64,000 nucleotides of DNA, from the NCBI RefSeq assembly GCF_056712565.1, contig NZ_CM160072.1; one strand, 5' to 3'. How positions within the stretch are numbered: position 1 is the stretch's first letter; every line of letters starts with the position of its first letter. The notes beneath the pieces are model-generated. The model did no database searches, was not told the DNA's origin, and saw only the letters and a program-made list of their open reading frames with translations. Positions 24,801-35,021 of the stretch are shown piece by piece. The position numbers were made by a program, and so were the translations under genes.

Positions 24801-25166
24801 CTAAAACCCTGTACCGAAGAGCGGCGGCGCGATGGGGTGAAGTAATGCAGTTGGGAAACTGATAAGGAACGGTATTACATATCAATGCGACGACTGGAAT
24901 GTTCCAGGAAGGCACAGAGGCCACCGAAGCAACCGGATAATTTAGAAGACCTGAAACGGTCGCTTAAACGCACTGAAAAAGAAATGGGGATAGATGGGAT
25001 CGGGAAATCAGTATGGCGTAACTACCAGAAGTAAGCACAGAGCCGGAGCAATCCGGCTTTTTTTGGGGCTGAAATCAATCAATCTGTTTTTGTGATAGAA
25101 ATATGTTTATCTACCACTTTTTCAGATCAATAATGTGCATAGTTTAGTCAGTAAGAGGAAATTGCT

Positions 25167-25469: not shown

Positions 25470-28001
25470 ATGCCAGTCGTACCAACAGTATCCGGACGTC
25501 AGGTTGAGAGCCGTGGAGTTCAGTCAGCAGGCTTGCAGACGTTTTCTCAGCCAGGTATTAGTGATGCTTTTGTTCGTGCAGGAGCAGAGGCAATTGATGT
25601 TCTGGGTCAGGCAAAACAGCGTGCCAATATTGCCTTGGTTCAGGAGGCATCCCTTAAACTCAGTCAGACAGGCAGTGATCTGCTGAATAATCCTGAAACA
25701 GGATTGCTTAACCTGAAAGGGAAAAATGCTATTGGAAAAGGCCATGAGTATACGCAGCAGTTTGATGCTCAGGTCGAACAACTGGCTATGTCGCTGCCGG
25801 ATGAACAGGCCCGTAATGCTTTCATGCAGCAGGCACAGCAGCAGCGCATTCAGTTCACTACGCAGGCCGGGCGGTACGAGATCGGGCAAATAAATGCCTA
25901 CGAAGAAGGCCAGTTTCAGGCTACGCTGCTGAACAATGGTAAAAATGCCGCAGCATTGTATGGCGACAACGCCGCATACGTATTGGCTAATAAGCAAACT
26001 TTCCAGCAAATTGAGGAGTACGGCATTGCGCATGGCTGGAGCGACGAGCAGATTCGGGCCAGGAAAATCGAGTTTAAAGAAGCAACAGCAAAAGCAACTG
26101 CTCAAAATGCTATTGGAGCAAACTATCTTCAGGTAAGACAGCAAAACGGCGAGTTAAGCGATACTGCTGCTGGAGCTCGCCGTGCTGTAGCAGATAGTGG
26201 ATCTTCCGATCGTACCCGCGGTATACGCAACAATAACCCCGGCAATCTTGAATACAGCAAAACTAATCCGTGGGTTGGGCAGACTGGTGATGATGGTCGC
26301 TTTGCTAAATTCGAAACACCTGAACACGGTATTCGTGCATTAGGGCGGAACCTGATGTCGTATCAGCGGCAGGGTATTGATACCGTCAGCGAGATAATTA
26401 ATCGCTGGGCACCGCCTACTGATAAAAATGACACTATGTCGTATATCAAAGCAGTGTGCGAACAACTTGGCGTTTCTGCTGATGATCCTATAGATGCATC
26501 TAATCCGGATACCCTGAAGGCGCTTTGTGCAGCCATTATCCATCATGAAAACGGTAGCCAGCCATACAGTGATCAGCAGTTAACTGCAGGTGTTAGTGCT
26601 GCGCTGGGGCTTTCTCAGCTACCGACAAAAAATAAACGTTATACCGGTGTAGCCTGGTTCGATGCTTTAAGTGAATCGGATCAGGCCAGCGTGTTGCGAC
26701 AGACTGATGCACTAGCCAGACAACAGCAGGCTGAATATAAAACGATGCTCGACAGCCAGGTTCGCGATGCGACAGCTGCGTATATGCGTGGCGTTGAATT
26801 TCCTAACCCACCAGGTGAGGCTGATTTTATTGCAGCTTATGGCGTCAGAGAAGGAAACCTGCGATATACCGAGTTCAGAAATACGCAGATCGCCGGACAG
26901 TATATAGGCTCTTTCCGCAACATGCCGACAAGCAGCATTACCGCATATGTTGAGCAATTGCGCCCGGATACTGGTGAAACAGGGGAGGGGTATGCGTCTC
27001 GTGCGAAGTTATTCGACCGGGTATCGGCGGCAGCCACGAAGGTAATAACCCAGAGGCAGAATAATCCGTTTAGTGCAGCGGTGGAAATCGGAGCCTATAA
27101 GCCGATCACCAGCAACAACCCTGACGACATCACTGCCGAGGTGGCTAACCGTTTCTCGTCGCAGGAAAGCTTACGCGCGTTGGGAATTAATGCCCCAATC
27201 CTCAACAGTGAAGAGGCGGCTGCGCTGGCACAGCAGGTGCGCGGCACTCAAAACGTTGACCAGACAATTAAACTGTTGCAGAGCATGGGGGAAAAGCTAC
27301 CTGCGCCAGCAATACGGCAGGTGGCATCTGTAATTGCTCCGAACAGTGCAGCAACAGCCTATTCTGCGCTGCTGCTGGGCACGCCGGATAATCAGTACGA
27401 TAACACCAGGCCGTCGATCCCATATAGTCAGTTCATCGGGTATAAGCCGACGATGAACAAGTACGACGTTGCAAAGGTTATTCTTTCCGGTGACCAACTA
27501 CTGAATCCGACGAAGGCTATGAAGAATGCGGGCATAACTCCGGTACAGTTGCCGAGCGAAGATAAAATGAAGCGCGCTTTCGACGAACAGGTTGGTAATG
27601 CATTTGCCCGTAACCCAGAGACGCGCCAGATCAGTTATAGCCTTTTCAAAGCCGCTTACGCAGGAATCGCTTATCAGTCTGGTAATGCGTCTATGACGAG
27701 CACAGATGCGGTTAACTCCGATGTGGCGGAGAAAGCTGCGCAGTACGCAACAGGCGGTGTATACAAGAGATTTAATGGTGGTGATGTTGTAATGCCTTTC
27801 GGCATGGATGAATCCACTTTCAAAGATCGCTATACCACATCAGCGAAACAAGCACTGAAAGATGCCGGACTTAACGTAAATGCAGTGTCAAACTTCACAC
27901 CAGTTAATATCGGCAATAACCGGTATCGGCTGGTAAATGGTAGCGGACGCTGGGCAACAGATCCCAGAACCAATGAAGCTATTGTCGTGAGGGTTGAATA
28001 A
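25470..28001 (+). CDS. large hypothetical protein A (843 aa), Q/A-rich, with conserved central segment GIRNNNPGNLEYSKTNPWVGQ...WAPPTDKNDT...HHENG
   Basis: Strong SD (aggagg) 8 nt upstream of ATG; stop overlaps next start (TAATG). Composition resembles phage internal virion / ejection or polyvalent proteins; no family confidently assigned. Confidence 0.6.
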   Translation: MPVVPTVSGRQVESRGVQSAGLQTFSQPGISDAFVRAGAEAIDVLGQAKQRANIALVQEASLKLSQTGSDLLNNPETGLLNLKGKNAIGKGHEYTQQFDAQVEQLAMSLPDEQARNAFMQQAQQQRIQFTTQAGRYEIGQINAYEEGQFQATLLNNGKNAAALYGDNAAYVLANKQTFQQIEEYGIAHGWSDEQIRARKIEFKEATAKATAQNAIGANYLQVRQQNGELSDTAAGARRAVADSGSSDRTRGIRNNNPGNLEYSKTNPWVGQTGDDGRFAKFETPEHGIRALGRNLMSYQRQGIDTVSEIINRWAPPTDKNDTMSYIKAVCEQLGVSADDPIDASNPDTLKALCAAIIHHENGSQPYSDQQLTAGVSAALGLSQLPTKNKRYTGVAWFDALSESDQASVLRQTDALARQQQAEYKTMLDSQVRDATAAYMRGVEFPNPPGEADFIAAYGVREGNLRYTEFRNTQIAGQYIGSFRNMPTSSITAYVEQLRPDTGETGEGYASRAKLFDRVSAAATKVITQRQNNPFSAAVEIGAYKPITSNNPDDITAEVANRFSSQESLRALGINAPILNSEEAAALAQQVRGTQNVDQTIKLLQSMGEKLPAPAIRQVASVIAPNSAATAYSALLLGTPDNQYDNTRPSIPYSQFIGYKPTMNKYDVAKVILSGDQLLNPTKAMKNAGITPVQLPSEDKMKRAFDEQVGNAFARNPETRQISYSLFKAAYAGIAYQSGNASMTSTDAVNSDVAEKAAQYATGGVYKRFNGGDVVMPFGMDESTFKDRYTTSAKQALKDAGLNVNAVSNFTPVNIGNNRYRLVNGSGRWATDPRTNEAIVVRVE

Positions 28002-30061
28002 TGTCTGATGTTTTTTCTTTGGCTCCAGAAGGTCAGGCATGGATTGACGACAAAACAGTTGCCAACCCAGCAAGGCCAGAAGACTACGATCCGACTCCCT
28101 TCCAGGGTTCAGGTACTGCACTTTTGAGCGGCGTGGCGGAGGGGGCTCTCGGTCTCGCGCAGTCTGCCGTCGGATTCAGCAAGCGCCTGATTAGCGATCC
28201 GGCATTTACCGCAGACGTGGCACCGACTGTTAATATTTTTCGGGAGATGTTCCCTGATGCTGACAAAACACTGAATGATACATACGACACGATCGGAAAA
28301 CAGTTACAGGATGCCCGCAGCTATGTGAAGCCTGATGCAGGCAGTCAGGGAATGGCGGCTGAGGTATTAAATGAGCTTGGTAAATTTGTTCCTGCAATCG
28401 GAACAACTATGTTTGGCGGTCCCCTCATCGGCGCTGCTACAGCTTTCAGTTCTACGTATGAGCAGTCCTATCAGGATTTTAAAGGGAAGGGAGTAGACGA
28501 GGCTACGGCGCGTAACCTGGCAACGCAGCAAAGCCTTTTCAATGCTGTGGGTATGGCCTTACCCGCTGCCGTCGGCACCACACTGGCAACGCGCATTGCC
28601 TCAGGTGTGGCAATCAACACCGGATTCGGTGGACTGAACCGTTACTCTGTCGGCGCAACACTGGAGGAAAAAGGCTACACGGAGATGGCAAAACAGTACC
28701 GGGTATTTGACGGTCAGGCGATGTTAGTCGATGCCGTTTTAGGCGGGGTCTTTGGTGGCGTTCATCACCTGACTACCCATAATAACCATGATGGTACAGA
28801 GTCGAACATTTCTGCAGAAGAAATAAAATCAACTTTTGGTGAACATTATCAGCAATCTCCTGATGGTAACATTGAGTCAATGGTTCGTGATTTATCTGAT
28901 TCAGGAGTAATAGAACTTATTAATGAACCAGCAATAAAAAATAGTGATGGAGAAATACTTCTGAATAAAGGTCATGTGACAGTAGCTTCTGGAAAAGAAC
29001 CAATAATAAGAATAAATATTAATGGATTAAAAGATCATGAAGAACTGTTAGAAACCCTTCATCACGAGGCGCTTCATCTTGAGCAGCGCCATTACCCTGA
29101 CTGGAAGGCCAGAAAGCTAGCTAATGCTGTACTTAAATCTGCAAACAAGCATTCTGACTATCCTGAATTTGCATATGGGATGTCACAATATTATGAATAT
29201 AAGAAAAGGGGTGAGTACCCTGAAACATATCCTGAGTGGTTGTACGCTGAAGAAGTTGCCGCACATGCAGTAAATCCATCTCTAAAGACAAGCGTTTCAT
29301 CATGGGAAAAAATTATTTCAGGTTTTAAAGCCTATATATTCAGATACAGTGGTATTCAGGTTGGAACCGTTACACCTGAGCAGTTACGGTTACTCGTAAG
29401 TATGCGTCTTCGCAATATGAAACTGGAAGCCGCAGTCGAAAAAGTTTTTGGTATCCGGGCAAGGGAAAGAATAAAACCAAGCGATATTGATGCAGCCCAC
29501 ATTTTGAATGAGGGGCTTCATTACGATATTGAATCGTCACCAGTGCTTCACACCAGCAATGAGAGCATCAACAGCCATGTTGACGCCATGGATGAAGCAT
29601 ACAGGCAACTTAATGATGGTCAGCCTGTAAATGTTGGGGGGATGGCGCGAGGGCTTGATGGTCCATTGCGATCAGATATATCTGATACTTACCAAGAGCA
29701 ATACCATGAAATACAAAAGGTTTTTGAAGAAAATGGTGTCAGATATGAAACATCATCAGAGCCAATTAGTGAATCGCCTGTCCCTCGTGCTGAAAGTGCT
29801 TTCTCATCGGCTGGTGAACACAGAGGGGACGTCAGCGTTGATCCAGATACAGGGCAGGTTCTCTCATCCAACAGCTATGACCTTATGGCTGCCAGAGACA
29901 TGGCTGTTGCCAATCCTGAGCTGACTATAGCTCACCCGGAAACCGGAAACCCGACAAAACTTTCTGATCTCCTGGCTGAGTTGGATGAACAGATTAAGAC
30001 AGTCCAGAACGAATCGAAGGTTTATTCTGTAGCGGCAGCGTGCTTCTTGAGGAACCCATAA
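28001..30061 (+). CDS. large hypothetical protein B (686 aa) with glycine-zipper-like hydrophobic N-terminal region and HExxH zinc-metallopeptidase motif (LHHEALHLEQRH)
   Basis: Translationally coupled on both sides; HEALH motif encoded within a conspicuously AT-rich segment (about 28790..29350). Confidence 0.6.
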   Translation: MSDVFSLAPEGQAWIDDKTVANPARPEDYDPTPFQGSGTALLSGVAEGALGLAQSAVGFSKRLISDPAFTADVAPTVNIFREMFPDADKTLNDTYDTIGKQLQDARSYVKPDAGSQGMAAEVLNELGKFVPAIGTTMFGGPLIGAATAFSSTYEQSYQDFKGKGVDEATARNLATQQSLFNAVGMALPAAVGTTLATRIASGVAINTGFGGLNRYSVGATLEEKGYTEMAKQYRVFDGQAMLVDAVLGGVFGGVHHLTTHNNHDGTESNISAEEIKSTFGEHYQQSPDGNIESMVRDLSDSGVIELINEPAIKNSDGEILLNKGHVTVASGKEPIIRININGLKDHEELLETLHHEALHLEQRHYPDWKARKLANAVLKSANKHSDYPEFAYGMSQYYEYKKRGEYPETYPEWLYAEEVAAHAVNPSLKTSVSSWEKIISGFKAYIFRYSGIQVGTVTPEQLRLLVSMRLRNMKLEAAVEKVFGIRARERIKPSDIDAAHILNEGLHYDIESSPVLHTSNESINSHVDAMDEAYRQLNDGQPVNVGGMARGLDGPLRSDISDTYQEQYHEIQKVFEENGVRYETSSEPISESPVPRAESAFSSAGEHRGDVSVDPDTGQVLSSNSYDLMAARDMAVANPELTIAHPETGNPTKLSDLLAELDEQIKTVQNESKVYSVAAACFLRNP

Positions 30062-32817
30062 TGAAACAGGCATGTGTTGAAGCTATTGCGCAGACACTTG
30101 GTCGCCAGCCAAAGGCTGATGAGCTGAAAAATATCGAAGATCGTATCAAAGAAGCAGTGCAACATGTGCACAGAAAGAATGCAAAAGAAGGCAAAAGTGG
30201 TATTCCTGATGCTCAAACATACATGGATGCTGCAGAACTGGTACGCCAGCGTGTGGTTCATGATGTGTACAAGAAAAGACAGCGTGTTGCCCAGAATGCG
30301 ATCGCCATCAGTAAAATTACTGACACTCTCGATGCTAACATCCCGCCTGATCAGCAGACACCTGTTAATTTGCAGCAGTTTATTTTTGCTGGCCGACGAT
30401 CGAGAGACAAAGCTGATATCTCCGTTGCTTCTGCTGAAGAGCTTGCAATTGGGGCATATCAGGACTGGTCCCGTCAGCTCAGTGCTGAACTTCTAAAAGC
30501 AGGTGATGACGTCCGCAAATTCTTCGAGCAGAGCAGGGCGCTTGGAGAGCAGCGGTTTCGGAGTGTATTCGACAGGCAGGCGGCAAAGTCTGCACAACTC
30601 CAGATCCTGAAAGAAATTTATGGCGAAGATACCGGGAATCCCCTGGCGAAGAAAATTGCACAGATTTGGAAGGATGTAACAGGCCGTGTTCGTCATGAGA
30701 TGAACGACAACGGCTTTGACATAGGCCTGCGAGAAGACTGGCATACGCCATATGTGGATGATGCTGACCTTATTCGCAATGCCGGGCGCGAAGAATGGCT
30801 GGCATCGTTACCAGTGGCAGAGCAAGCTACAGCACGTCTTTCAGGTCGCCAGCCACCGATTGAGTTTGCCCGCCAGAAATGGGTTGATGACGCTTACAAC
30901 ACGCAGGATCGCAGCAATTACGTTAATCCTGACGGCAGCATTATGAATGACGTCGAGTACCGTCAGGCACTGGAAGCGATCTTTGAAACGAAGGCCACTG
31001 ATGGGGCAAACAAAATTGAGCCCGGTACATTTATGGGAGCCGGAGGAATAAAGAGCCGTGGTTCTCAGCACAGGGTGATGGCGTTCAAGGATGCGCAGTC
31101 ACACTTCGCCTATATGGAGCGATACACTCAGCAGCCGCTGGTGGGGGTGATGATGTCGCACCTGCAATCATCATCCAGGGATTTGGGCGTCGTTAAAGCC
31201 TTTGGTCCGGACGCCGAAAGAAACTTTTCCCTGGTACTGGATCGCATCTATAAGCGCGCAGTAACAGGCGGGAAACGCAAAAAAGAAATGGAGGATGAGG
31301 CCAAATTAGTAGCCCGTATGTTCAACTCAATGGCTGGCCTAAATGGTGTCGCTTCATCGAGTGTGTTCTCTTCAGCTGTTGGTGGTCTGCGTAACCTGAT
31401 GACCAGCGCCATGCTTGGCACCAGCGTACTGACAGCAACCAGCGACCAGGCAATTATGCGGGCAAATGCGCAGGCGCTGGGCTTTACCCGTGGTGGAATG
31501 CGGCTTTCCGTTAACACTATCAAAAACCTGTTTAGTGGAGATGCCAAAAAGGCGAATGCTGAACTCGGTCTGCTGGTGGATTCACATGCTGCTGTGGTTT
31601 CGAAAATGGGCGGGTTTGACTTGTCTCGCGGCATAACTGGCTGGTTCGCAGAGAAGACACTGAAGTGGTCCGGGCTGATCGCTATGGACCGCGCAAACAA
31701 AGCGTCGTTTGGTCTCCTGATGTACAAAAACATTGGCGAGCTGACCAGAAAATTTAAGACGCTGGACGATATGAAAGGAACCGATAAAACCATTCTGGCT
31801 AACAAGGGATGGAGCAATGAGGACTGGGCCATCATGGCAGCGGCAGAACTCAGGCCGATGACTACTGCCGGGCATATGGGGATGACGCCAGACGCGATTT
31901 ACGCTGTGCCCGATAACGTAATCGCCGACATTATGGCAGACCGTATTACCCGGATTCGTGCCGGGAGTGAAAAGGCACTGGCAGCACTTGGAGATCTCCC
32001 TCCAGAACGCCTGAAACGGATGAAAGAAGCATTCGACGCTGAGGCTGAGCAGACCATCACGCGCATGATTCGTAATGCACGCGCTGAAGCAGCCCATAAA
32101 TTGCTGGGAATTACGCACGGTGAGATGACCAATGCTGTGACCACCGCTACGGGTATTGATACATATGCCCGTGATGATGCTGGCGAGTTAATGAAGAGCT
32201 TCATGCTCTTCAAAACAACCCCATTTGCTGGATTTCGGCAACTTGTTAACAGAACACGGGATTTGGACACCGTTCCGGCCATTAAATTTCTGGCCTCATA
32301 TATCGGGGGAACAACTCTTGCTGGTATGTTTGCGATCCAGATGAACAGTTTGTTAAATGGTAATGATCCGCTGGATATGACAAAACCAACCACATGGGTT
32401 CAGGCTTTACTGAAAGGTGGTTCGTTCGGTATCTACGGTGATTTTATTTTCCAGGACCATACGCAATATGGCTCCAGCATCGGTGCCACTATGGGTGGCC
32501 CTGTGTTGAGCTTTGCAGAGCAGTTAACAAAATTACTGATTACTAACCCACAGAAGGCTCTACAGGGTGAAGAAACATCATTCGGTGCCGATGCACTGAA
32601 AACAGCCCGCATGATCACCCCATTCGCAAACCTGTGGTATGCGAAAGCGATAACCAATCACCTGATATTGCAACAACTTCAGGAGATGGCAAACCCTGGT
32701 TACAATGATCGAGTAAGGGACCGCGCGCAACGGGAGTTCGACATAACGAGTTGGTGGGAACCGGGTGCTATTGCGCCACGTAGAGCACCGGATTTTGGAA
32801 AGGCGGTAGGGGAATGA
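30061..32817 (+). CDS. large hypothetical protein C (about 918 aa)
   Basis: ATG at 30061 overlaps stop of protein B (TAATG); ORF track offers an upstream GTG at 30040. Stop overlaps start of the next small ORF (ATGA). Confidence 0.6.
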   Translation: MKQACVEAIAQTLGRQPKADELKNIEDRIKEAVQHVHRKNAKEGKSGIPDAQTYMDAAELVRQRVVHDVYKKRQRVAQNAIAISKITDTLDANIPPDQQTPVNLQQFIFAGRRSRDKADISVASAEELAIGAYQDWSRQLSAELLKAGDDVRKFFEQSRALGEQRFRSVFDRQAAKSAQLQILKEIYGEDTGNPLAKKIAQIWKDVTGRVRHEMNDNGFDIGLREDWHTPYVDDADLIRNAGREEWLASLPVAEQATARLSGRQPPIEFARQKWVDDAYNTQDRSNYVNPDGSIMNDVEYRQALEAIFETKATDGANKIEPGTFMGAGGIKSRGSQHRVMAFKDAQSHFAYMERYTQQPLVGVMMSHLQSSSRDLGVVKAFGPDAERNFSLVLDRIYKRAVTGGKRKKEMEDEAKLVARMFNSMAGLNGVASSSVFSSAVGGLRNLMTSAMLGTSVLTATSDQAIMRANAQALGFTRGGMRLSVNTIKNLFSGDAKKANAELGLLVDSHAAVVSKMGGFDLSRGITGWFAEKTLKWSGLIAMDRANKASFGLLMYKNIGELTRKFKTLDDMKGTDKTILANKGWSNEDWAIMAAAELRPMTTAGHMGMTPDAIYAVPDNVIADIMADRITRIRAGSEKALAALGDLPPERLKRMKEAFDAEAEQTITRMIRNARAEAAHKLLGITHGEMTNAVTTATGIDTYARDDAGELMKSFMLFKTTPFAGFRQLVNRTRDLDTVPAIKFLASYIGGTTLAGMFAIQMNSLLNGNDPLDMTKPTTWVQALLKGGSFGIYGDFIFQDHTQYGSSIGATMGGPVLSFAEQLTKLLITNPQKALQGEETSFGADALKTARMITPFANLWYAKAITNHLILQQLQEMANPGYNDRVRDRAQREFDITSWWEPGAIAPRRAPDFGKAVGE

Positions 32818-33155
32818 AAAAGTTAAATACACCAACCAAAAGAGTTGGGGGGCTTCTGATTGTCATTGGAATTATATTTATACTTGCATCTATAATAGAA
32901 ATATCAAGTAATGAGTTTGCTATTTCTGATAGTCCATATTATCGATCGCTAAATGCATATGATATTATTTTTATGTATTTAGAGCGAATTACAGATACTT
33001 TCATCATGACTCTAACATTTCAAACATGGAGTAGCCGTTTCAGTATATTAATGTTAGTAGGGTTTTGTTTATTTATTGTTGGTGTTCTTATTTCATATTT
33101 TTACGATGCTGGAATTGGCAGGGTTGTTAAGTGGATAAGAACGGGTAATTGGTGA
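32814..33155 (+). CDS. small hydrophobic protein (113 aa, two predicted TM segments), AT-rich gene
   Basis: Start ATG overlaps stop of protein C; hydrophobic stretches GLLIVIGIIFILASII and FSILMLVGFCLFIVGVLISYF; markedly lower GC than flanks. Confidence 0.5.
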   Translation: MKKLNTPTKRVGGLLIVIGIIFILASIIEISSNEFAISDSPYYRSLNAYDIIFMYLERITDTFIMTLTFQTWSSRFSILMLVGFCLFIVGVLISYFYDAGIGRVVKWIRTGNW

Positions 33156-33237
33156 TTATAAGCAAGCTATTGGTTTCATTGTTTATATCGTTGTCGGAAC
33201 TTTTTCAACTGACAGCAATCATAGCCGGGCTTGAATC

Positions 33238-33528
33238 GTGGTGGGGATTGCACTGGATAATTGCAGCCCCATTGCTTTCATCGTGAGCTATATTCCATTT
33301 GTTGGAGCGATTGTTGGTATGGTTGGCGCTATGGATGTATGGTGTTGGGAGTGGTGGCAGGCTGGCCTTCTATTCTTTGGTGGATCATCTTTGCTATTGT
33401 CAGCGGTGGAATGTCATCATTTTTCGAATGGCTATCATTCAGAAAAAGAGCGTGACATGTCACAGGCCGCTTTCGCGGCCTTGTTTTTAACGAATGCCAC
33501 CGCCGCCCGGGCGGGAATCCGCAGATAA
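33238..33528 (+). CDS. possible small membrane protein (96 aa); reading frame uncertain (three overlapping ORFs)
   Basis: Hydrophobic segments; alternative frames 33261..33455 and 33299..33490 also open. Confidence 0.3.
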   Translation: MVGIALDNCSPIAFIVSYIPFVGAIVGMVGAMDVWCWEWWQAGLLFFGGSSLLLSAVECHHFSNGYHSEKERDMSQAAFAALFLTNATAARAGIRR

Positions 33529-34156
33529 AAAAGCCCGCTGCACGGTTTTATTAATACTTATACCATTAGGATTGATCCTTCAATGGACAATCCTTCCATC
33601 GTGTGGCCAGCCATTCATATTCTTTGTCTTTTCTTCAGTACCGGCTTTGCATCTTCTACACCCTGAAAGATGTCGTTTTATGGTGTATCTGATGATTTAT
33701 TCCCTAACAATAGATATTCGAAAAATTAATCAGTTAAAACAATTATTTGGATAATTTCAGGTAAAAACTATCTTAATCTTCTGGTGGATCTCAATGCGCC
33801 GTGACGGTATCGGGATTAAGGGCGTGGATATTCGCGATATATGCCGCTACACCCCTCAACAGTAATAGATATGCGCTTTTCACGCTCTCCTTTCACTGCT
33901 GAGAACGGCAACAACGTGCCACAGGAACGCGCTGTAATCGATTCTGACGCACTTAATTGCGTTGGGTAATGGTTTGCCAGCCTGTGGGGGTAACTCTGTT
34001 TTATGAGGCTTTGGCTATAGTGCAAAAATGCACTTTGTCTTGCCTCTCAATTTGATGAGACTGGAACGACAACAGGACAGACCACCAGCAACAGTTACCG
34101 TATTCAGCCGTTCTGTGGCACCAGTGGAACTATCCACCCCTGCTTTCAGCAATGTG

Positions 34157-34311
34157 TTTGCGGGTTATTTTGGGGCGTTTGCGGGTTATTTGGGATGTTT
34201 TGCGGGTTATGCGATGCTTGAATAATGAACAGTGCATTTTGCAACATATTGATACTAAAGAACAAAAAATAGTTAGCACACTAAGATAACCCGGTAACCC
34301 GCATAACCCGC
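34157..34311. repeat. iteron-like cluster 2: three direct TTTGCGGGTTAT copies at 21-bp spacing (34157..34210) plus three contiguous inverted TAACCCG(C/G) copies (34286..34311)
   Basis: Read directly; same 9-mer as cluster 1, about 11 kb away near the right end of the element. Confidence 0.7.
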
Positions 34312-34695
34312 ACTGTTTTGTATATATATACGAAAAATTGCATTCAGGAGGGGGGATCGAAATCCCTACAACCCATTGCTTATGGGACCGCCGCCTCGTC
34401 AAATTTTTACACCCGCGAAATAAAAAATACTTCACGCTGGTGGGCATGATGCTGATATGAGAGGCTTCCATAACGCCACCATTCGAAACTATGCAAATCT
34501 GCATAGAAAAGGGGATGCCTGATACAATACCCTCGCCCGATAAAATCACACCGATAAACTCATCTGCCACGAGTAGAAAGAGCGAACGAACCCGATACGC
34601 AGTAATGCTGGTCGGGTCCAGCTTTTTAAGGCGGCTGTAGATATCAGGCCATCCGTGATCATCCACCAGCGTAATTGCTGAACGCTTTAAAAAAA

Positions 34696-34719
34696 CGTGT
34701 ACATAAGGGTGTACATAAT
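34696..34719. repeat. right boundary repeat of integrative element (putative attR or arm-type sites): cgtgtacataagggtgtacataat
   Basis: 22 of 24 identity with 14783..14806, direct orientation. Confidence 0.6.
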
Positions 34720-34960
34720 CAAAAACCGCATTAGAAAGAAACCAGATACAATGCGGCATTGAAGCCAACACTCTACAAACAGATCCAGAACATTGAATAA
34801 CTCGTAACGCCAATTCTTCCTTTTCAGCCTTCACAAATGCCGCCCACTCAAACAGAGCGGCATTTTTCCTCCCCGCAACATTCAATTCTGTTTTGCGTGC
34901 CTGCTCCAGATTTTGCGATGTTTTTTTGCCCAGCGCAGTGAGAACGTGAGATACTCACAA

Positions 34961-34976
34961 CTGTATATAAACACAG
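34961..34976 (+). promoter_or_regulatory. LexA (SOS) box of dinD: CTGTATATAAACACAG
   Basis: Matches CTGT-N8-ACAG consensus, 46 bp upstream of dinD start. Confidence 0.8.
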
Positions 34977-35021
34977 TTGTAAACTTACTTTCCTTGCAAT
35001 CGATATCATATGGAGTGGGCA

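Follow-up and report, generated by a model that had tools for sequence, protein, structure and literature searches.

The DNA analyzed here is a stretch of 64,000 nucleotides (nt) from contig NZ_CM160072.1 of NCBI RefSeq assembly GCF_056712565.1, referred to below as the window. According to the RefSeq annotation, it covers an integrase island of ~20 kb (roughly 14.7-34.8 kb) that lies between yicC and dinD in an Escherichia coli chromosome. Three large genes of this island (25470-28001, 28001-30061 and 30061-32817) are followed at their 3' side, near the right end of the island, by a set of small open reading frames (ORFs), which a first-pass annotation, made from the letters alone, had listed as immunity, holin-like or membrane partner candidates of the giant proteins. 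The region can be divided into a gene for a protein of 113 amino acids (aa) with two predicted transmembrane (TM) helices (32814-33155, plus strand), the remains of a second gene of 98 codons (33160-33455, plus strand) and an intrinsic terminator (33464-33490, plus strand).

The identity of the giant proteins defines the setting of these small genes. In a PHROG search, they match phrog_992, phrog_1145 and phrog_684, which are head or virion structural families. The third gene (30061-32817, plus strand) encodes a homolog of gp17 of phage epsilon15, with 88.9% aa identity over 918 aa in tblastn and an E-value of 5.5e-295 for phrog_684. The first giant carries a lytic transglycosylase domain, and the epsilon15 record presents the same order of gp15 (lytic transglycosylase), gp16 and gp17. 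Proteins of the types termed internal virion protein (IVP) C and D are ejected and build a conduit for the DNA. Epsilon15 gp15/16 have been equated with T7 IVP-C and gp17, an ejection protein, with IVP-D (Hardies et al., PMC4819975). The island holds intact gp15-gp16-gp17 ejection-protein genes of the epsilon15 type, and the giants are virion ejection proteins, neither toxins nor effectors. Within the gp16 homolog, the guanine-cytosine (GC) content dips to 0.36 at 28900-29200, the part that the first-pass annotation had called the HExxH segment, and the protein measures 686 aa in the window versus 634 aa in epsilon15; the dip and the difference in length suggest a mosaic insertion in the window copy.

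The 113-aa gene, listed as WP_023151891 by the Prokaryotic Genome Annotation Pipeline (PGAP), begins on the stop codon of the gp17 homolog. Its ATG overlaps the TGA of the 918/925-aa ORF that ends at 32817 (ATGA; GGGGAATGAAAAAG), and via this overlap the gene is translationally coupled to gp17. Its GC content is 0.307-0.313, compared to about 0.50-0.53 in the upstream gene, so that the earlier description of an AT-rich two-TM ORF starting on the stop codon of the third giant is borne out. The topology proposed at that time agrees with two strongly hydrophobic stretches (residues 12-30 and 76-94, with means of 2.67 and 2.72 on the Kyte-Doolittle scale over 19 residues), with basic N- and C-terminal tails and with an AlphaFold model that places helices at residues 7-34, 48-67 and 78-110 at a predicted local distance difference test (pLDDT) score of 82.7. 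The protein is predicted to form a two-TM hairpin with both termini inside and an acidic periplasmic loop of ~45 residues, and its location in the inner membrane is predicted from the two TM helices and the positive-inside rule. Directly behind gp17, in a position hereafter called the slot, homologs are found at 99, 53 and 39% identity, each with the same overlap. The ratio of nonsynonymous to synonymous substitution rates (dN/dS) is 0.12 between the window gene and the 53%-identical homolog of another prophage, with dS being saturated in this comparison, and a ratio of 0.47 against a 93-aa allele reflects replacement of the loop. The interval 32814-33155 is very likely to be a genuine gene, given its slot-sharing homologs, the purifying selection and 91 representative proteins that share both of the family motifs described below. 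The allele is rare, as it is present in only 7 of 5,426 complete E. coli genomes.

This 113-aa protein belongs to a previously undescribed family of small membrane proteins of prophages. A word-indexed search of 5.8 billion proteins with the 113-aa query returned only three clusters, and a profile search of 1.84 billion representatives recovered 91 proteins at E<=1e-3, with 11 at E<=1e-10. One relative is the 53%-identical homolog mentioned above (L011), a 112-aa protein whose gene overlaps gp17 in the same way and fills the slot of a complete epsilon15-like prophage, one equipped with a tailspike, holins, a GH19 endolysin and a spanin, while the 93-aa variant occurs in other copies of the island (L012-15). 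The family is characterized by the motifs LNTPxKRxG before TM1 and S[YF]xYDxxxGR[IV]xxWIxxG after TM2. Both are present in the window protein, where they flank its two TM helices, and R10, G12, G19, G83, G90, S94, Y97, W107 and G111 are invariant or nearly so in the family alignment. The motifs are cytoplasmic, and the variability is concentrated in the periplasmic loop, which differs in length and sequence among the members; some members are additionally fused to extra N- or C-terminal domains. Gene contexts were sampled for ten members of the family. Seven of these lie directly after the last ejection-protein gene and three (P0071, P0069 and P0077) are situated 2-11 nt downstream of, and co-oriented with, a gene for a CI-type S24 repressor, opposite cro/cII and with no ejection genes nearby. 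The position directly after cI is the place of rexAB in phage lambda and of other exclusion genes transcribed together with cI. Since these three genes are operonic with the CI repressor, their products are expected in lysogens, whether or not an ejection-protein gene is present. The window gene itself is not located behind cI; it is a single small gene without a RexA-like partner or any sequence similarity to the lambda proteins.

Established resources do not contain this family. Pfam, NCBIfam and PADLOC gave no match for any of the small ORFs or for nine distant family members, and PHROGs yielded nothing for the 113-aa family, the best hit (phrog_23438, E 0.0075) being insignificant. A tblastn search of the 113-aa protein and of the CI-linked P0071 against 50,697 phage records gave no match, a Foldseek comparison of the AlphaFold model with PDB and BFVD retrieved nothing below E 0.6, and a locus scan with a three-sequence alignment found a single, identical locus.

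The end of the ejection operon in epsilon15-like (Uetakevirus) genomes is a slot for one or two small membrane-protein genes, after which a terminator follows. The content of this slot differs widely: it encodes gp18 (64 aa) in epsilon15, p21 (46 aa) in phiV10, a 'putative integral membrane protein' (55 aa) in Salmonella phage 66FD, a 57-aa plus a 98-aa protein in phiv142-3, the 113-aa or 93-aa protein in the island and a 104-aa protein in E. coli GF4. The two-TM proteins gp18, p21 and that of 66FD are exact positional equivalents of the 113-aa protein, after gp17 and before the terminator, and gp18 even has the same ATGA overlap; however, all three are unrelated to it in sequence and much shorter. 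Among the 36 complete E. coli genomes that carry this gp17 at >=95% identity, the slot is occupied by the 113-aa allele in 7 and by the unrelated 104-aa allele in 29. When two island copies are compared, gp17 shows a dS of 0.04 (99% identity at the C-terminus), whereas the slot genes differ with a dN of 0.49 and have only their last 22 codons in common. Pseudomonas, Ralstonia and Vibrio phages that share the gp15-17 module lack slot genes, and the space would not accommodate one. The slot gene is exchanged independently of gp17 and is hence accessory. Because the slot is swapped behind gp17 and absent in distant phages, the 113-aa protein is not an obligate anchoring partner of the giants, which had been one of the arrangements envisaged for it. 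The linkage itself holds up, as the 113-aa and 98-aa families recur directly after homologs of the third giant in many independent prophages; a lack of conservation beside homologs of the giant genes, named at the outset as a possible refutation, is not observed.

Several further observations concern the slot and its surroundings. The 104-aa protein (WP_000196352; L008:3318-3632), found in E. coli GF4 and 28 other complete genomes, is charged at its ends and has two segments of weak hydrophobicity; PHROGs and PADLOC contain no match to it, and in islands with this allele the 98-aa gene has left no trace. In phiv142-3, gp17 and the 98-aa gene are separated by a two-TM ORF of 57 aa that lacks annotation (L003:3833-4006). 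The 'spacer' of phiv142-3-type phages is therefore probably a gene, in a layout of gp17, two-TM gene, three-TM gene and terminator as in the window. Directly after the 98-aa gene, a Cronobacter prophage carries a HicA/DUF1902 (HicB-like) toxin-antitoxin pair (L021:7362-7820), and a Tad2-like anti-defense gene is located after the tail genes of another locus (L033:14649-14924). Such contents fit a hotspot for accessory genes in the region after the slot.

Downstream of the 113-aa gene, overlapping ORFs exist in all three plus-strand frames (33149-33286, 33238-33528, 33261-33455 and 33299-33490). The ORFs starting at 33149, 33241 and 33261 match positions 13-38, 36-80 and 72-97 of the 98 positions of phrog_3075 (E 1.6e-8, 3.7e-21 and 1.2e-5), and since three frames match consecutive parts of one profile, their overlap is more than chance. 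Reading in frame 1 (33160-33198), frame 2 (33200-33270), again frame 1 (33271-33383) and finally frame 0 (33384-33455) restores all 98 codons up to a TGA at 33453-33455. The interval 33160-33455 is almost certainly a pseudogene of one conserved gene for a 98-aa three-TM Uetakevirus protein, identified by PHROG search and nucleotide alignment. The window copy is homologous to phrog_3075 over its full length and sits at the same place before the same terminator as in phiv142-3, HEMP4, YDC107_2, Klebsiella phage BUCT711 and many Enterobacterales prophages, but it lacks a start codon and contains three frameshifts. Intact 98-codon alleles, each followed by this terminator hairpin, are present in the four named genomes, and comparison of the E. 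coli phage allele with that of the Klebsiella phage gives a dN/dS of 0.022, a sign of strong purifying selection. In prophages of Cronobacter, Salmonella and Yersinia, too, the 98-aa gene comes right behind the final ejection-protein gene, and it keeps this position across divergent sets of ejection proteins.

All four lesions were mapped on the plus strand by alignment. First, the start codon ATG is changed to AAG at 33160-33162 (TACATG to TATAAG), a loss that is common to all island copies examined, as seen when the window, L009, L010 and L012-15 are aligned with the phages L003 and L005-7. Second, an extra A at 33198-33199 (GGAACT versus GG-ACT or GG-TCT) causes a +1 frameshift in the window allele only. 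Third and fourth, -1 frameshifts result from C4 instead of the C5 of intact alleles at 33267-33270 and from GG instead of GGG at 33382-33383, both in homopolymer runs. Sister islands took different paths: codon 26 is a TAG in L010 and L012-15, and the loss of the start is the only lesion in L009. As independent secondary lesions follow a shared loss of the start codon, the 98-aa gene is under neutral decay in the islands. The three small hydrophobic ORFs that had been reported to overlap in different frames do exist, yet they are not candidate genes: their appearance is due to three frameshifts in one dead gene, and the earlier suggestion of fixing the real frame at 33238-33528 falls away with it. 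Sequencing error was rejected as a cause of the frameshifts, the allele being identical in five independent complete genomes. Programmed frameshifting was rejected as well, given that the start codon is gone, that full translation would take three shifts of mixed sign and that sister copies have a nonsense codon instead. An RNA gene under the ORFs was not detected, with all Rfam matches far below their gathering scores.

The decayed gene has left its mark on the annotation. A 95-aa coding sequence (CDS) at 33241-33528 on the plus strand (PGAP WP_244442414), which corresponds to the ORF previously given as 33238-33528, is a chimera that does not represent a real gene: the middle of the 98-aa pseudogene makes up its first half, and an out-of-frame reading of the 3' end of the pseudogene and of the terminator hairpin makes up the second. 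WP_244442414 is an annotation artifact. Its C-terminus matches phrog_25977 (69 positions), and the same alternative frame has been called in phage genomes (L003:4159-4461). A second real gene in 33391-33528, represented by phrog_25977, was considered and rejected, as the frame runs through the hairpin of the terminator and is interrupted in Klebsiella phage BUCT711 by an indel of 10 nt; phrog_25977 is probably an artifactual family derived from an ORF in an alternative frame, one that overlaps the 98-aa gene at its 3' end. The ejection-protein operon is closed by an intrinsic terminator (AGGCCGCTTTCGCGGCCT and then TGTTTTT), which starts 8 nt past the TGA of the pseudogene, has a folding energy of -16.5 kcal/mol (z -2.8) and is conserved and annotated as a terminator in phiV10-like phages. 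In phages, an antisense gene for a small secreted protein (Orf11 of phiv142-3) follows this terminator. The alignment with phages identifies a stub of about its last 10 codons at 33496-33525 on the minus strand, where the homology to phage DNA ends.

For the function of the 113-aa protein, an accessory, carrier-protecting role as an inner-membrane protein of the superinfection-exclusion type is proposed. This role is favored over those of an obligate ejection partner, a holin or the immunity half of a toxin pair because the slot is accessory, its genes swap independently of gp17 and relatives are linked to CI. The protein would act at the inner membrane and hinder the DNA of incoming phages from entering, in analogy to P22 SieA; the variable periplasmic loop would set the specificity, and the conserved cytoplasmic motifs might mediate assembly or contact with the host. 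In a looser sense, the word immunity used for these ORFs earlier can be retained, since exclusion of an incoming phage that uses such ejection proteins is the best functional guess. SieA is a three-TM inner-membrane protein that blocks DNA injection and for which escape mutations map to the ejection proteins gp16 and gp20 (PMC10461980). The 113-aa protein is likewise small, helical, predicted to reside in the inner membrane and of temperate-podovirus type. However, SieA has 162-164 aa, three predicted TM helices and its own promoter, PsieA, whereas the 113-aa protein has two TM helices and no independent promoter was found for it.

A number of points weigh against an exclusion role. No similarity of the 113-aa protein in sequence or fold to SieA or to known exclusion or defense proteins was found with PHROG, Pfam, PADLOC or Foldseek. 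A consensus scan for a promoter of its own inside gp17 detected none that is convincing, and a weak -10-like element ~110 nt upstream of the gene is not conserved. Because a convincing promoter is lacking, the protein may be made only together with the late or ejection operon, which fits a virion-related or late-infection role equally well as exclusion. The epsilon15-like neighborhood (gp17, slot gene, terminator, antisense Bro-N antirepressor and tailspike) invites comparison with P22, but the parallel leans on a gene order that is assumed here, with sieA presumably located after genes 7-20-16 and before the antirepressor region and the tailspike. The family contexts number only ten, and the role is deduced from sequence and gene context. 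The full statement, namely a live 113-aa gene next to a dead 98-aa gene with a role in exclusion, is considered evenly balanced between right and wrong, and the exclusion mechanism, taken by itself and by analogy, is put forward tentatively, at somewhat under an even chance.

Other functions of the 113-aa protein have to be weighed against exclusion. It could be an accessory of the ejection apparatus, acting as a membrane chaperone or docking factor for the membrane-active ejection proteins in the producing cell or as a minor injected protein. The ATGA coupling to gp17 together with the lack of a clear promoter, the seven of ten sampled relatives that directly follow a gp17 homolog and the 98-aa family, which is likewise fixed there across divergent sets of ejection proteins, are all in favor of this explanation. 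It is nevertheless unlikely in view of the unrelated genes that replace the slot gene behind a near-identical gp17, the distant phages that have the same module without it, the three relatives that share an operon with a CI repressor and lack ejection genes in their vicinity, and the tolerance of the island for the loss of the neighboring 98-aa gene. A factor of lysogenic conversion, meaning a small membrane inhibitor of a host inner-membrane enzyme (e.g. for O-antigen polymerization or modification) that alters the cell surface, appears rather improbable. This function finds precedent in the 66-aa two-TM 'alpha polymerase inhibitor' that epsilon15 is annotated to encode for serotype conversion and in the O-antigen modification genes (GtrA, glycosyltransferases and Acyl_transf_3) that Uetakevirus prophages carry near the region, and the post-CI position would fit expression in lysogens. 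On the other hand, no similarity to known inhibitors was detected with PHROG or Pfam, the 113-aa gene is not adjacent to conversion genes and a hypervariable periplasmic loop suits a fast-evolving phage target more than a conserved host enzyme.

A membrane effector of abortive infection, in the manner of a small RexB-like pore or ion-leak protein that is triggered upon infection, has a small chance of being correct. Three relatives of the 113-aa protein, just after a CI-type S24 repressor, sit in the position of rexAB of phage lambda, and the extra domains fused to some family members could act as sensors. However, no partner sensor gene is conserved alongside the family, the protein has two TM helices only and no PADLOC model was matched. 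The holin-like function that had been considered for the small ORFs, as a holin, antiholin or pinholin contributing to lysis, is very improbable. The small size, the N-in/C-in topology with two TM helices and the charged C-terminal tail do resemble class II holins and pinholins, and the top viral matches in Foldseek are holins, although not at a significant level (E 0.6-1, TM-score about 0.3). Against this, the gene lies outside any lysis cassette, and related prophages possess separate, complete cassettes several kb away (Phage_holin_8 plus Phage_holin_3_7, GH19 or lysozyme, and spanin). The 113-aa protein has no significant match to a holin family and the 98-aa protein reaches only E 0.027 with Pfam Phage_holin_5_2, co-transcription of a holin with the CI repressor in lysogens would be lethal, and the island is without an endolysin. 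Finally, the effector/immunity pairing with the giants that the first-pass annotation had favored, for which the tight gene coupling, the HExxH motif noted there in the middle giant and the lytic transglycosylase domain of the first could be cited, is barely tenable, because the giants are conserved as structural ejection proteins among podoviruses, the slot gene varies independently of them (113-, 93- and 104-aa alleles) and many phages have the giants but no slot gene.

The wider island consists of genes for an integrase, a helix-turn-helix regulator, Rha, AntA/B, BRO-N, an Icd-like protein, DUF4222, a DUF927 primase, a single-stranded DNA-binding protein, ProQ/FinO and a frameshifted PerC, followed by the three large genes and the small ORFs. 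Its right boundary was placed at ~34780 by comparison with island-free genomes, and no attachment (att) repeats longer than 12 nt were found. Genes for capsid, portal, terminase, tailspike and lysis functions, including endolysin, are absent from the island at ~14700-34780, which looks like a satellite-like element that bears its own DNA-ejection proteins. Literature searches retrieved no description of an island or element of this type, and no paper on epsilon15 gp18 or on the accession numbers. Over the 1.5 kb tested, the window matches the chromosomes of E. coli ExPEC XM and four other complete genomes at 100% identity. The same element also occurs at a second site, adjoining yqeG (L009 and L010), and 36-40 complete E. 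coli genomes carry the gp17 allele of the island. A PerC-family regulator gene (~24809-25034), which lies shortly before the gp15 homolog, is frameshifted according to PGAP and counts as the second decayed gene of the island. The interval 33530-34780, which separates the phage-derived module from the chromosome, is island-specific DNA; a query of 33530-35010, which includes conserved chromosomal sequence, is present to at least 80% in only 21 genomes. A minus-strand ORF at 34130-34885 (251 aa, PGAP hypothetical protein WP_170991934) has no PHROG, PADLOC or NCBIfam match. Elsewhere in the window, tRNA-Sec (selC) at 60580-60674 is directly followed by an ORF at 60598-61764. The selC gene is a classic site of island integration, and a second mobile element may begin there.

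For annotation, one RefSeq CDS and probably one PHROG turn out to be artifacts, and three ORFs are explained without recourse to ribosome profiling. The two-TM family is absent from Pfam, PHROGs, NCBIfam and PADLOC and occupies two classic accessory positions of prophages, at the end of the ejection operon and directly after CI. In its most far-reaching form, the proposal would make this family (LNTPxKR/YDxxIGRxxxWI) a new and widespread class of phage-entry blockers, in which the hypervariable periplasmic loop recognizes the trans-envelope ejection channel of incoming podoviruses. In the island, it would be paired with the ejection genes as an 'ejection plus exclusion' module of a satellite, a capsid-less element that supplies its own injection proteins and decides which virions inject. 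This version is speculative and improbable, and the effect on the wider field would be incremental unless the satellite-linked reading is true. If the block of DNA entry as such proves to be true, the 113-aa protein and its relatives would represent a compact, single-gene exclusion family that is easily testable and would provide a handle on how ejection proteins of the epsilon15 type cross the inner membrane.

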